Part shown: piece by piece, positions 4,409 through 9,624 of the stretch
How the letters are laid out: each line of letters starts with the position of its first letter
Numbering within the stretch: the first letter of the stretch is position 1
Virus record (IMG/VR): IMGVR_UViG_2778261231_000012
Direction: 5' to 3' (one strand)
DNA from: a virus
Lineage: Duplodnaviria > Heunggongvirae > Uroviricota > Caudoviricetes
Length of the DNA stretch: 30,030 nucleotides
The notes under the pieces: generated by a model
What the model was told of the DNA's origin: nothing
Seen by the model: only the letters and a program-made list of their open reading frames with translations
The model's database searches: none
Translations under genes and position numbers: made by a program

Positions 4409-4908
4409 AGCCGGGTGGCATCTGCATCATTGTGATTGTTGCGTTGGTAGGTTCGTTTCTCGCTGGCAGTGAGTGGACGAACCGCAGCTGGAAAATAAAG
4501 TGGGCTGACCGGGATAGCGCGGAATCTTCACAGGAAGCGAATGCACAGACCGCAGCTCGTATGATTGAACAAGGGCGAACAATCGCCCGGGATGAGGCCG
4601 TTAAAGATGCTCAAGCTCAAGCAGCGAGCGCTGCCGTTACTTCTGCTGGCCTGGCTACCACTGTTAAGCAGCTGCGCGCCGAAGCAACAAAACTCGCTAC
4701 CCACATGGACGCCGCAAAGCACACCGCAGATCTCGCCACTTCCGTCAGAAGCAAAACAGCCGGAGCCAACGCAGCAATGCTTGCCGACATGCTCGGAAGC
4801 CTTGCAGAAGCAGCTCGATATTATGCTGGACGATCTGACGAAAGCTACCGGGCAGGAATGACGTGTGAGCGGATTTACGAATCAGTGCGACTGTCGAATA
4901 ACCAATAG
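4405..4908 (+). CDS. Rz: i-spanin Rz
   Basis: GTG start overlapping the endolysin stop (GTGA); N-terminal TMD ICIIVIVALVGSFLAGS; Ala/Gln-rich coiled-coil-like periplasmic domain; contains Rz1 embedded in the +1 frame. Confidence 0.8.
   Translation: MKPGGICIIVIVALVGSFLAGSEWTNRSWKIKWADRDSAESSQEANAQTAARMIEQGRTIARDEAVKDAQAQAASAAVTSAGLATTVKQLRAEATKLATHMDAAKHTADLATSVRSKTAGANAAMLADMLGSLAEAARYYAGRSDESYRAGMTCERIYESVRLSNNQ
4592..4861 (+). CDS. Rz1: o-spanin Rz1 (lipoprotein) fully embedded in Rz
   Basis: Signal peptide with lipobox LSSC (LLLLAWLPLLSSC); proline-rich mature part; alternative start at ATG 4607. Confidence 0.75.
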   Translation: MRPLKMLKLKQRALPLLLLAWLPLLSSCAPKQQNSLPTWTPQSTPQISPLPSEAKQPEPTQQCLPTCSEALQKQLDIMLDDLTKATGQE

Positions 4909-4915
4909 GCGATTC

Positions 4916-5164
4916 ATGCTGCTAGTTTTCGTCCTCTTGTCGATATGGCTCTGTCGGCAACATGAGGAACGCCGCTGGCCTTCGGTCGGCTTTAATGTCT
5001 CATCGCTGATGCTCATCACCGAGCAACCGGCACAATTCCTGAATTTGAAGCTGATAATGGTGAGATTATCCCCGGTTATACCGGACTTATCGCCTATTCA
5101 GAATCACTGGATCACGGTGTGTTGCAACTCGACGACTAGCGGCATTACAGCAGGCATTCACTGA
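4916..5164 (+). CDS. possible small membrane protein (uncertain)
   Basis: ORF beginning MLLVFVLLSIWLC (one predicted TMD) right after Rz; no convincing SD; followed by the hairpin at 5183-5201. Confidence 0.2.
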   Translation: MLLVFVLLSIWLCRQHEERRWPSVGFNVSSLMLITEQPAQFLNLKLIMVRLSPVIPDLSPIQNHWITVCCNSTTSGITAGIH

Positions 5165-5182
5165 GTGCCTGTGATAATGCAA

Positions 5183-5201
5183 CAGCCCGTACAAAACGGG
5201 C
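5183..5201. terminator. hairpin between convergent genes (candidate bidirectional terminator)
   Basis: agcccgt-acaaa-acgggct perfect 7-bp stem between the stop of the + strand ORF (5164) and the stop of the - strand gene (5208). Confidence 0.4.
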
Positions 5202-5207
5202 TTGGAT

Positions 5208-5822
5208 TTATCTCTTTGTTGCGTTCATGGTCACATGGTAAACGAATTGGCTAAATTGGTTATCCCAGCGCCCATTATGATTAGCTGCAACTAATTGCAT
5301 TAACGCCTGCATTAACTTGCTGAACAGCAAGATTAACTTAAGTCTGTTTTTTGAACTGTCACTATCTAAGGAAACTTCTTCGGTTAATTGATTCTCGGCG
5401 TTAAAAATACCCAGTTTTGATTCTTCCATGCTGGGTTCCGTTGGATGCTGTTTAAAGTATTCAGTCAGAGTATCCTTCAGGCTCTGGATCCTTGAATCAG
5501 CAATGCTTTGTATTGATGGATTGTGTGCAAGGTCATTACGCATTGAGTTGATGGTTTTAAGTGATTTCATAAGTTCCGGGGGGATTCCCAGGTTTCCCGC
5601 CATGGATATTTTAGTATTACATTCGATTAAAAGTTTGTTTTTATCTCTTCCAAAGAGATCTTGGCAGTCACAGCATGCGCATATCCATGCTTCGACCATG
5701 CGCTCACAAAGTAGGTGAATGCGCAATGTAGTACCCACATCGTCATCGCTTTCCACTGCTCTCGCGAATAAAGATGGAAAATCAATCTCATGGTAATAGT
5801 CCATGAAAATCCTTGCATTCAT
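5208..5822 (-). CDS. hypothetical protein with HEPN-like R-N-x-x-A-H motif; candidate abortive-infection/defence moron in the lambda bor position
   Basis: 204-aa antisense ORF with GGAGG SD 4 nt before ATG; motif SMRNDLAHN at residues 94-101; locally A+T-rich DNA; transcribed against the late operon with a hairpin after its stop. Confidence 0.6.
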   Translation of the reverse strand: MNARIFMDYYHEIDFPSLFARAVESDDDVGTTLRIHLLCERMVEAWICACCDCQDLFGRDKNKLLIECNTKISMAGNLGIPPELMKSLKTINSMRNDLAHNPSIQSIADSRIQSLKDTLTEYFKQHPTEPSMEESKLGIFNAENQLTEEVSLDSDSSKNRLKLILLFSKLMQALMQLVAANHNGRWDNQFSQFVYHVTMNATKR

Positions 5823-5841
5823 AAATCCTCCAGGTAGCTAT

Positions 5842-6033
5842 ATGCAAATTGAAACAAAAGAGATGGTGATCTTTCTAAGAGATGATGGAATCTCCCTTCA
5901 GTATCCCGATGGTCAATGCGCTGGATATGGGATAGATGGGAATATGCTGATTTTTATGGGACAGAGTTGCGAACTGTTCCCAACTAAAATCATTTTGCAC
6001 GATCAGCGCACTACGAACTTTACCCACAAATAG
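5842..6033 (+). CDS. possible small ORF (63 aa from ATG) in the divergent intergenic region; doubtful
   Basis: Track ORF 5803-6033; weak SD; no recognisable motif; may simply be promoter/leader DNA for the flanking divergent genes. Confidence 0.15.
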   Translation: MQIETKEMVIFLRDDGISLQYPDGQCAGYGIDGNMLIFMGQSCELFPTKIILHDQRTTNFTHK

Positions 6034-6121
6034 TCAGGTAATGAATCCTGATATAAAGACAGGTTGATAAATCAGTCTTCTACGCGCATCGCACGCGCAC
6101 ATCAAAGAGAGTCTTTCAGTA

Positions 6122-6188
6122 GTGAGCCTGGGTGATGCCGTTAGGTTGCGTTTACCTCTCGGGCGGCATTGCCGTGCGACAGGCTCAC
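6122..6188 (+). promoter_or_regulatory. long nested stem-loop in the 5' leader of the 6208 gene
   Basis: gtgagcctg (6122-6130) pairs with caggctcac (6180-6188); inner atgccg (6135-6140) with cggcat (6164-6169); innermost aggt/acct; ends 5 nt before the AAGGA SD. Confidence 0.4.
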
Positions 6189-6207
6189 GCCTAAAAGGAA
6201 ATATTCC

Positions 6208-6936
6208 ATGAGTAACAAAATCATTACGCTATCTGGCGCTGCTAATGAAGTGCTTTATGCGCTGTTTTTCCGTGGCGCGTTGCTGTCTGGTGATCTGCCT
6301 TCTAAATCTGGCACAGCCGAATTGCGCGAGCTTGGTTTTGCTGAAACCAGACACACAGCAACTGAATACCAGAAAGAAAATCACTTTACCTTTCTGACAT
6401 CAGAAGGGCAGAAATTTGCCGTTGAACACCTGGTCAATACGCGTTTTGGTGAGCAGCAATATTGCGCTTCGATGACGCTTGGCGTTGAGATTGATACCTC
6501 TGCTGCACAAAAGGCAATCGACGAGCTGGACCAGCGCATTCGTGACACCGTCTCCTTCGAACTTATTCGCAATGGAGTGTCATTCATCAAGGACGCCGCT
6601 ATCGCAAATGGTGCTATCCACGCAGCGGCAATCGAAACACCTCAGCCGGTGACCAATATCTACAACATCAGCCTTGGTATCCAGCGTGATGAGCCAGCGC
6701 AGAACAAGGTAACCGTCAGTGCCGATAAGTTCAAAGTTAAACCTGGTGTTGATACCAACATTGAAACGTTGATCGAAAACGCGCTGAAAAACGCTGCTGA
6801 ATGTGCGGCGCTGGATGTCACAAAGCAAATGGCAGCAGACAAGAAAGCGATGGATGAACTGGCTTCCTATGTCCGCACGGCCATCATGATGGAATGTTTC
6901 CCCGGTGGTGTTATCTGGCAGCAGTGCCGTCGATAG
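6208..6936 (+). CDS. hypothetical protein (242 aa), unknown function, immediately upstream of cos
   Basis: ORF with AAGGA SD 7 nt upstream of ATG 6208; no motif I can recognise. Confidence 0.65.
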   Translation: MSNKIITLSGAANEVLYALFFRGALLSGDLPSKSGTAELRELGFAETRHTATEYQKENHFTFLTSEGQKFAVEHLVNTRFGEQQYCASMTLGVEIDTSAAQKAIDELDQRIRDTVSFELIRNGVSFIKDAAIANGAIHAAAIETPQPVTNIYNISLGIQRDEPAQNKVTVSADKFKVKPGVDTNIETLIENALKNAAECAALDVTKQMAADKKAMDELASYVRTAIMMECFPGGVIWQQCRR

Positions 6937-6949
6937 TGTGCAATTGATA

Positions 6950-7181
6950 ATTATTATCGTTTGCGGGTCCTTTCCGGCGATCCGCCTTGTTACGGGGCGG
7001 CGTCCGCGCAGATTCTCGCTATTTATGAAAATTTTCTGGTTTATGCCATTTCCGTTCTTCTTCTTGTTTACTCATTGTTTTTGTTAAAAACGTCCTCTCT
7101 CCAGAAAGGAAATGCTGAGCAAGGAAAACGGAAGTTTACCGTTGATTGTTTCCTTTCTCTGTTTTTTGCCAGGAGTAAGCC
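6950..7181 (+). other. cos site (cosQ-cosN-cosB) of lambda type; predicted 12-nt cohesive end GGGCGGCGTCCG at 6995-7006
   Basis: Strong resemblance to the recalled lambda left end: ACG/GGGCGGCG(T)CC(G)CGC...TTCTCGCTATTTATGAAAATTTTC.GGTTTA...TTTCCGTTCTTCTTC...TTTCCTTTCTCTGTTTTT, immediately upstream of Nu1. Confidence 0.8.
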
Positions 7182-7727
7182 ATGGAGGTTAACAAAAAAC
7201 GCTTATCCGAAATTTTCGGGGTAAGCGTCCGAACGATTCAGAACTGGCAGGAGCAAGGTATGCCGGTTGTCCGCGGTGGTGGCAAAGGTAATGAGGTTCT
7301 CTTTGAATCTGCTGCTGCAATCGAATGGTACAGTGCGCGCGATGCAGCTATAGAAAATGAAAAGTTGCGGAAGGAAGTTGAAGATCTCCGTATCGCTTCT
7401 GAGTCCGATCTTCAACCTGGCACGATTGAATATGAGCGACACCGACTTACGCGAGCTCAGGCTGACGCTCAGGAATTAAAAAATGCAAAAGAGTCCGCTG
7501 AAGTGGTGGAGACCGCATTCTGCACGTTCGTGCTGTCGCGGGTAGCCGGAGAAATCGCCAGCATTCTCGATGGAATACCTCTGTCGGTTCAGCGGCGCTT
7601 CCCGGAGCTGGAGAACCGACATATTGATTTCCTCAAGAAGGACATCATTAAGGCCATGAACAAGGCAGCTGCGCTGGATGAAATGATACCGGGGTTGCTG
7701 AGTGAATATATCGAACAGTCAGGTTAA
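7182..7727 (+). CDS. nu1: terminase small subunit Nu1
   Basis: Close match over its full length to recalled lambda Nu1 (MEVNKK...IRTIQNWQEQGMPV.RGGGKGNEV...[10 protein letters not shown]). Confidence 0.95.
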   Translation: MEVNKKRLSEIFGVSVRTIQNWQEQGMPVVRGGGKGNEVLFESAAAIEWYSARDAAIENEKLRKEVEDLRIASESDLQPGTIEYERHRLTRAQADAQELKNAKESAEVVETAFCTFVLSRVAGEIASILDGIPLSVQRRFPELENRHIDFLKKDIIKAMNKAAALDEMIPGLLSEYIEQSG

Positions 7728-9624
7728 GGGGCTGCAGCACTCTGCGCGGGCGGGGTTACGTTCGCTGTACCGGCCGCAACCGCAAACAGCAGTTGAATGG
7801 GCAGATGAGAATTATTATCTCCCGAAAGAGTCTGCCTACCAGGAAGGGCGCTGGGAAACACTGCCATTTCAGCGTGCAATTATGAATGCGATGGGTAATG
7901 ACTATATTCGCGAGGTGAATGTCGTTAAATCGGCTCGTGTCGGCTACTCAAAAATGTTGCTCGGCGTTTACGCATATTTCATCCAACATAAACAGCGTAA
8001 CTCCCTAATATGGTTACCAACCGACGGTGATGCTGAAAACTTCATGAAGTCTCATGTAGAACCGACCATTCGTGATATTCCGACGTTGCTGGCGCTTGCT
8101 CCCTGGTACGGTAAAAAACACCGGGACAATACGCTGAGCATGAAGCGTTTCTCGAATGGTCGTGGTTTCTGGTGCCTGGGCGGTAAGGCTGCAAAAAACT
8201 ACCGTGAAAAATCAGTTGATGTGGCTGGCTACGACGAGCTCGCCGCTTTCGATGATGACATCGAGAAAGAAGGTTCTCCCACCTTTCTGGGTGATAAGCG
8301 TATTGAGGGTTCTGTATGGCCGAAATCCATTCGCGGATCTACACCGAAAGTCAAAGGTACGTGCCAGATAGAAAGAGCTGCTAAGGAGTCTGAACATTTT
8401 CTTCGGTTCCATGTTCCATGCCCACACTGTGGGGAAGAGCAGTATCTGAAATTCGGTGATAAAGAGACACCATTTGGCTTCAAATGGTCTCCGGGAGAAC
8501 CTGCCAGCGTTTACTACCTCTGTGAACACAATGCCTGTGTGATTAAACAACAGGAGCTGGAATTTCTGGAGGCCAGGTATATTTGTGATGAAACAGGTAT
8601 CTGGACACGAGACGGCCTTAACTGGTTTTCTTCATCCGGTACCGAAATTGAACCTCCTGACAGCGTTACATTCCACATCTGGACCGCATATAGCCCGTTC
8701 ACAACCTGGGTGCAGATCGTCAAGGACTGGATAAAAACAAAAGGTGATACGGGTAAGCGAAAAACTTTCGTTAACACGACCCTGGGCGAAACGTGGGAAC
8801 CGAAAATAGGTGAACGACCCGATGCTGAAGTTTTAGCGGAACGAAAAGAGCACTTTGAAGCGTCTGTGCCGGAGCGAGTGGCATATCTGACAGCGGGTAT
8901 TGACTCCCAGCTTGACCGTTACGAAATGCGTGTTTGGGGATGGGGGCCGGGAGAGGAAAGCTGGCTTATCGACAAAATTATCATTATGGGTCGTCATGAT
9001 GATGAGTCGACTCTCGCTCGAGTTGATGAAGCGATCAACAGGACGTATAAGCGCCAGAACGGTCTCGAAATGGTTATATCCCGCACTTGCTGGGATATTG
9101 GCGGCATTGATCCCACCATCGTCTACAACCGCTCAAAAAAACACGGTCTGTTTCGTGTGATCCCTATAAAGGGGGCGTCGGTTTATGGAAAGCCAGTGGC
9201 GAACATGCCACGCAAGCGTAACAAGAATGGTGTTTACCTCACAGAGGTAGGAACAGACACCGCAAAAGAGCAGATTTATAACCGTTTCACGCTGGTGGCG
9301 CAAAGAGACGAGCCGCTGGCGGGAGCGGTTCATTTCCCGAATAACCCAGAAATCTACGATCTAACAGAGGCCCAACAACTAACAGCTGAAGAGCAGGTGG
9401 AAAAATGGGTAGACGGAAAGAAAAAGATCGTCTGGGACAGCAAAAAACGACGAAATGAGGCGCTCGATTGCTTTGTTTATGCACTGGCGGCGCTGCGTAT
9501 AAGCATATCCCGCTGGCAGCTAAATCTTGATTCACTTCTGGCCAGCCTGCTGGAGGAAGAAGGCAGCCGTAACAATAACAAGACCCTGGCGGATTACGCG
9601 CGGGCATTATCTGGAGATGAATAA
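7702..9624 (+). CDS. A: terminase large subunit gpA
   Basis: 640 aa; close match to recalled lambda gpA (MNISNSQV...[33 protein letters not shown]...); overlaps Nu1 3' end as in lambda. Confidence 0.95.

Follow-up and report, generated by a model that had tools for sequence, protein, structure and literature searches.

The window analysed here, a stretch of 30,030 nucleotides of viral DNA, carries at positions 6965-7158 what we regard, with a probability of about 0.9, as a functional cos belonging to a lambdoid prophage of E. coli whose head-tail module resembles those of mEp237 and phi80. Judged by its sequence, the site would combine a cohesive end of the N15/phiD326 type with a cosB region and a terminase of lambda specificity. 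The anatomy of the site and its homologies can be read directly from the DNA. Its value lies in annotation: it would fix the virion ends for this prophage family at 6995 (left) and 6994/7006 (right), and it places the element among those with lambda/phi80 packaging specificity and an N15/phiD326-type cohesive end. No new biology is involved, the variant end, the tolerance of the terminase and the same mixture of cosN and cosB having already been published.

The cos junctions of lambda (J02459), phi80 (JX871397) and N15 (AF064539) were put together from the terminal sequences of the GenBank entries, and the region 6940-7181 proved to be colinear with the cos regions of the three phages. In blastn comparisons, with E-values computed for a 30-kb search space, the identity was 81.1% to lambda over 169 nt (E 1.6e-41), 80.7% to phi80 over 243 nt (E 5.7e-60), and 92.7% to N15 over the 96 nt of the cosQ-cosN-I2 block (E 1.3e-36). 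The lambda-like cosQ-cosN-cosB arrangement that a preliminary description of this DNA had proposed upstream of the Nu1 gene is thus borne out by an alignment to lambda cos that is colinear and far beyond chance. Database searches revealed that the linear records of phi80, N15, 434, ev243, 2G7b, DN1 and lambda imm21 all begin with a base that aligns to position 6995; in addition, the 5′ extensions annotated in the N15 and phi80 records align to 6995-7006, exactly where the cohesive end had been placed.

The cosN nicking site (6993-7008, strand-neutral) consists of the 12-mer GGGCGGCGTCCG (6995-7006) with a CG dinucleotide on either side. This 12-mer was found once in the window, and the junction within 6940-7190 reads GATAATTATTATCGTTTGCGGGTCCTTTCCGGCGATCCGCCTTGTTACG, GGGCGGCGTCCG and CGCAGATTCTCGCTATTTATGAAAATTTTCTGG in succession, with the ATG of the following gene at 7182. 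Comparison with the lambda end GGGCGGCGACCT gave two changes, A>T at bp 9 and T>G at bp 12, and not the three differences originally counted. Base pairs 1-8 are the same as in lambda, the left half GGGCGGCG is kept and the CG dinucleotides bordering GGGCGGCGTCCG are intact. Both changes fall in the right, cosB-proximal half of cosN, and they affect non-symmetric positions, so that all ten symmetric base pairs are preserved. A conserved left half and CG flanks at both nicks are the criteria for a lambda-type cosN, and changes in the right half have little effect, nicking being tolerant of sequence change there (PMC4669245). By analogy with lambda (PMC9026076), nicks are predicted between 6994 and 6995 on the top strand and between 7006 and 7007 on the bottom strand, and the site would be active in this element.

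Taken by itself the 12-mer is statistically unremarkable, with 3.6 chance matches expected in the window at two or fewer mismatches. This is the point that favours a fortuitous match or a decayed remnant, in an element packaged by a headful mechanism or cut elsewhere. The significance of the site rests for this reason on the extended colinear alignment of about 240 bp and on the flanking Nu1 and A genes. The E-values for the region, between 1e-36 and 6e-60, the conservation of the site in sequenced phages and a terminase of the gpA/Nu1 type rather than the pac type effectively refute the idea of a chance match or of headful packaging, whose probability we consider practically nil. A headful-type terminase had been named in the preliminary description as evidence that would speak against a cos site; what was found is a complete cos together with a lambda-type terminase, both subunits of which, Nu1 and gpA, are assigned by Pfam to the cos type, and not a pac system.

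The remaining subsites of the functional cos proposed here were located by counting from cohesive-end base 1 (window position 6995). The sequence GGGTCCT at 6965-6971 (-30 to -24, plus strand) matches cosQ exactly and is spaced as it is in lambda and phi80; the phi80 record labels this block as the cosQ / R4 region, and the 7-bp cosQ is highly conserved (Feiss 2015, PMC4669245). The I2 spacer (7007-7046, +13 to +52, plus strand) aligns ungapped and conserves its length of 40 bp, with 34 of 40 positions identical to lambda and 36 of 40 to phi80. In lambda, the distance between cosN and R3 is critical (PMC4669245, PMC9026076). The R3 core CATTTCCGTTCT follows at 7047-7058 (+53 to +64, plus strand) and would be, by homology, the critical binding site of the terminase small subunit (TerS, gpNu1). 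Its bp 55-63 are unchanged from lambda; this segment is reported as the TerS contact and includes bp 56, 58 and 59, which are critical by genetic evidence (PMC9026076).

R2 (CATTTCCTTTCT, 7103-7114, +109 to +120) lies on the minus strand, inverted with respect to R3 and R1, at the same position as in lambda and phi80. R1 (TGTTTCCTTTCT, 7147-7158, +153 to +164, plus strand) is in direct orientation and 2 bp nearer to cosN than its lambda counterpart (+155 to +166). The window thus presents a tripartite cosB, with R3 at the fixed distance from cosN, R2 inverted and R1 direct. Each of the three cores has a single mismatch to the lambda consensus CGTTTCCNTTCT, and in none of them does it fall on the critical bp 56, 58 or 59. 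An inverted-repeat search independently recovered the R3/R2 and R2/R1 pairs, and the subsites agree with those of the curated 434 cos (R3 50-65, I1 74-86, R2 108-123, R1 151-166). A candidate site for IHF, I1 (AAACAATGAGTAA, 7068-7080, +74 to +86, minus strand), occupies the position at which I1 is annotated in phage 434; its mismatches to WATCAANNNNTTR number two, as many as for the I1 of lambda itself, and it is weak as a stand-alone match.

Some minor features of the cosB region were also recorded. An additional R-like sequence, TTCCGTTTTCCTT, is present between R2 and R1 (7121-7133, minus strand); it pairs with R3 in the inverted-repeat search and has no obvious lambda counterpart at the same place. 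Furthermore, the R2 and R1 inverted repeats are followed by a run of T residues (CTGTTTTTTG) in the window (7103-7170) as well as in lambda and phi80 (109-176 in both), so that a late transcript could fold, just upstream of Nu1, into a long hairpin followed by a terminator-like tail. When the folding of this R2-R1 hairpin was compared with that of shuffled sequences, z-scores of -5.6 for lambda, -3.4 for phi80 and -0.7 for the window were obtained; the proposal of a conserved intrinsic terminator or RNA hairpin was dropped, as the fold of the window does not beat the shuffles. Since R2 and R1 are already inverted TerS sites, the stem is not an independent feature, and the hairpin is probably a by-product of those sites. 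A short stem at the centre of the R2-R1 interval varies in sequence among cos lineages, and a search of positions 6700-7400 against Rfam gave no RNA family.

Directly after cos come a Nu1-type TerS gene and a gpA-type gene for the terminase large subunit (TerL). The product of Nu1 (7182-7727, plus strand) matches Pfam Phage_Nu1 with an E-value of 1.6e-95, and shares 87% identity with lambda gpNu1, 94% with phi80 gp1 and 59% with N15 gp1; neither Nu1 nor the ORFs upstream of it matched NCBIfam. Residues ~13-29 of Nu1, which from what is known of gpNu1 we take to be the winged-HTH DNA-binding segment, read GVSVRTIQNWQEQGMPV as compared with GASIRTIQNWQEQGMPV in lambda, a difference of two residues, whereas the N15 segment has diverged. 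From these comparisons, the specificity of Nu1 would be of the lambda/phi80 type. The A gene (7702-9624, plus strand) encodes a product that has the Pfam domains GpA_ATPase and GpA_nuclease and shares 88% identity with lambda gpA across 640 aa; it would be the ATPase and endonuclease that nicks cosN.

These data bear on whether the element might have the packaging specificity of N15, its cos being recognised only by a TerS of N15 type and not by a lambda-type terminase. The cohesive end is identical to that of N15 (AF064539), and so are 92.7% of the 96 nt of the cosQ-cosN-I2 block, but the alignment with N15 stops about 40 bp past cosN. Packaging specificity is set by cosB and TerS, and not by cosN (PMC4669245). 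In N15, cosB is simple, with R3 only and a remote rR2 inside gene 1, without an IHF site, and the TerS has a distinct specificity (PMC4669245); unlike N15, the window has a tripartite cosB with lambda-type R3, R2 and R1 sequences, and no simple cosB lacking R2, R1 and I1 was seen in it. Its TerS, 87-94% identical to those of lambda and phi80 and 59% to that of N15, is also lambda-like in the N-terminal DNA-binding segment. We therefore rejected N15 specificity, to which we give hardly any credence: as cosB and TerS are the determinants and both are lambda-like here, the specificity would be that of lambda/phi80.

The 12-mer is a known cohesive end. GGGCGGCGTCCG corresponds to bases 1-12 of N15, annotated in AF064539 as a 5′ single-stranded extension unlike that of lambda. 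The ends of N15 depart from the lambda ends at bp 9 and 12, and these two positions also distinguish the long-known phiD326 end (PMC4669245); the likeness to phiD326 is taken from the statement in that paper and not from the phiD326 sequence. The variant cohesive end announced in the preliminary description does differ from lambda, but it is the already known N15/phiD326 type and not a new one. Differences at bp 7-12 are common among lambda-like phages, and neither lambda nor N15-hybrid terminases show cosN specificity (PMC4669245). A phage with lambda cosQ, N15 cosN and lambda cosB yielded 132 pfu per cell, versus 120 for the one with lambda cosN (wild type) (PMC4669245). This phage, 1201 (Feiss et al. 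2015, PMC4669245 Table 4), contains the same mix as the window, an N15-type cosN with lambda-type cosB and terminase, and its yield cannot be told apart from that of the wild type; it was engineered in the laboratory from lambda, whereas the window is a natural mosaic.

On the model of lambda (PMC4669245, PMC9026076), dimers of the Nu1 product (gpNu1) would bind R3 and R2 across an IHF-type bend, with R1 as an accessory TerS site. The dimers would anchor gpA, which would nick the bottom strand between bp 12 and 13 (7006 and 7007), while a second gpA would nick the top strand ahead of bp 1 (between 6994 and 6995). Strand separation would then give the left (Nu1) end the 12-nt 5′ overhang GGGCGGCGTCCG and the right end its complement CGGACGCCGCCC. 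The terminase would remain on the cosB end as Complex I, which would dock on the portal, and the DNA would be translocated rightwards from Nu1 until packaging stops at the next cos on the concatemer, a step expected to need cosQ (6965-6971), cosN and I2.

The site was also compared with those of named phages. The order of elements in lambda (cosQ, cosN, I2, R3, I1, R2 and R1, then Nu1 and A) and the overall architecture are the same as in the window; lambda differs at bp 9 and 12 of the cohesive end and in its R1, 2 bp farther from cosN, and the region is 81% identical. Phi80 (JX871397) is the closest classical relative for the flanks, with identities at 46 of 47 bp left of cosN, 36 of 40 in I2 and 17 of 18 in R3, and has the same upstream gene (ORF x171.28, the N15 gp59 homologue) ending just before cosQ; its cohesive end, unlike that of the window, is the lambda 12-mer GGGCGGCGACCT. 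The same GGGCGGCGTCCG, R3, R2 and R1 were found in the isolated phages mEp237 (JQ182730; cos 98.8% identical to the window) and HK225 (JQ086371; 96-97%), and in Phi06_2987 S (KM389287/8; 100% where the cos regions overlap, right of cosN), although the accessory-gene sequence left of cosQ in these three phages differs from that of the window. In the records of mEp237 and HK225, which have been permuted so that they open with Nu1, cos is unannotated.

At a larger scale, the head-tail module is 97.7% identical to that of mEp237 over 17.8 kb and 100% identical to Phi06_2987 S over 3.4 kb, and the window as such has matches among lambdoid prophages in E. coli chromosomes. The closest complete genome, NZ_LT883142, agrees with it at 100% in the cos-Nu1 segment and covers 86% of its first 25 kb at 99.1%; the RefSeq annotation of this genome lists nothing between the upstream gene and Nu1. 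The order there runs from int and recET through the repressor, replication, nin, Q and lysis genes to the accessory genes, cos, and then head and tail. Homology to the lambda-type cos would put the left end at 6995, with lysis and accessory genes on the right: after excision and concatemer formation, the chromosome cut at cos would begin at Nu1 and end with the lysis and accessory genes at 4900-6940. The earlier proposal of a virion chromosome running rightwards from 6995, with a moron island at its right end, would follow from this homology.

The contigs of Phi06_2987 S break within the 12-mer: one ends ...GTTACGG, at position 1 (6995), and the other begins CGTCCGCGCAG, at position 7 (7001). 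Assembling linear virion DNA tends to produce such breaks. They are only suggestive, since the records are flagged UNVERIFIED and ends at positions 1 and 7 are not filled-in ends. A literature search on Phi06_2987 found nothing.

An intact cos could also belong to a defective (cryptic) prophage, which would make no virions and so have no real virion ends in its host. Many lambdoid prophages of E. coli are defective, the immunity, replication and integration region lies outside the window, and the relative in NZ_LT883142 has a frameshifted methyltransferase and a small pseudogene. On the other hand, every ORF for packaging, head or tail within the window is of full length, in a module with the high identity to mEp237 described above, and the NZ_LT883142 prophage retains its integrase, repressor, replication, Q and lysis genes; the pseudogene call for its tail protein T probably reflects the normal G-T frameshift. 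On this balance we consider a cryptic prophage unlikely, and a functional cos remains the preferred reading.

In the IMG/VR collection, 49 contigs contain the exact sequence GTTACG-GGGCGGCGTCCG-CGC. A lambda/phi80-type R3 was found at +53 in 36 of the 49, N15-type flanks in about 8, and a GTCCGG-type sequence at +53 in 3. In a scan allowing any base at bp 9 and 12, all four combinations were found to occur in nature: ACCT at least 122 times, TCCG at least 5, TCCT at least 3 and ACCG at least 1. Among the matches listed, the TCCG end is a recurrent minority type. A scan of species-representative genomes with GTTACGGGGCGGCGTCCGCGC gave no match. It was also observed, for the matches listed, that TCCG and TCCT accompany a phi80/N15-type I2 start (CGCAGATTCTCGC), and ACCT mostly CGCGGGTTTTCGC.

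A role for selection, rather than drift or descent, in maintaining the TCCG end as a cohesive-end compatibility group was considered and judged very unlikely. Chromosomes with ends from different cos types suffer a roughly 4-fold loss of yield (PMC4669245), so that TCCG could slightly disfavour hybrid concatemers or recombinants with co-resident ACCT prophages. The bp 9/12 counts (at least 122, 5, 3 and 1) do not separate selection from shared ancestry.

The ORFs to the left of cos were examined as well. A 204-aa ORF at 5208-5822 (minus strand) runs opposite to the late operon in a patch of low GC (about 40-42%, versus 50-56% in the flanks). It had no Pfam or NCBIfam match; a weak PADLOC match (E 0.004) to the HEPN part of the CARF_HEPN model and an R-x4-H motif (RNDLAH) were detected. 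A HEPN-type accessory or defence gene at the right end of the virion chromosome is a plausible reading of this ORF, and it would lend support to the earlier remark on a moron at this end. Nearer to cos, a 242-aa ORF at 6208-6936 (plus strand) ends 29 bp before cosQ. Its 3′ DNA is nearly identical to that of phi80 ORF x171.28, annotated as similar to N15 gp59 and likewise located just before cosQ. Depending on the E. coli genome, PGAP names the product 'Fur-regulated protein' or 'hypothetical protein', and Pfam Phage_Tail_Tip matches it only marginally. The gene appears to be conserved and cos-adjacent.

Two further ORFs on the plus strand, 6905-7087 (60 aa) and 6961-7224 (87 aa), run across cosN and cosB. 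The first is annotated in mEp237 as hypothetical protein mEp237_063 (44066-44281), and other phage records also list a 'hypothetical protein' beneath the cos match. ORFs called across cos (6905-7224, e.g. mEp237_063) are almost certainly spurious.

A different arrangement was noticed at eight IMG/VR loci (L012, L019, L021, L036, L045, L075, L097 and L128), each of which contains two complete lambda-type cosQ-cosN units. The paired units are convergent (inverted) and lie 527-870 bp apart, with arms of 50-72 nt that are 85-88% complementary; examples are found in L019 (4161-4758) and L036 (2355-3251). The words 'inverted' and 'two cos' are absent from the text of PMC9026076. Repeated R-like flanks were present at one cos and not at the other; by eye, L019 shows the 21 type. 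In L036, the cos pair flanks an ORF of 180 aa similar by eye to N15 gp1 / Nu1 (TerS), and the adjoining small gene cluster includes a 351-aa ORF read as capsid-like. This double-cos arrangement resembles a satellite or PICI-type element equipped with two packaging sites, which may serve two helper specificities.
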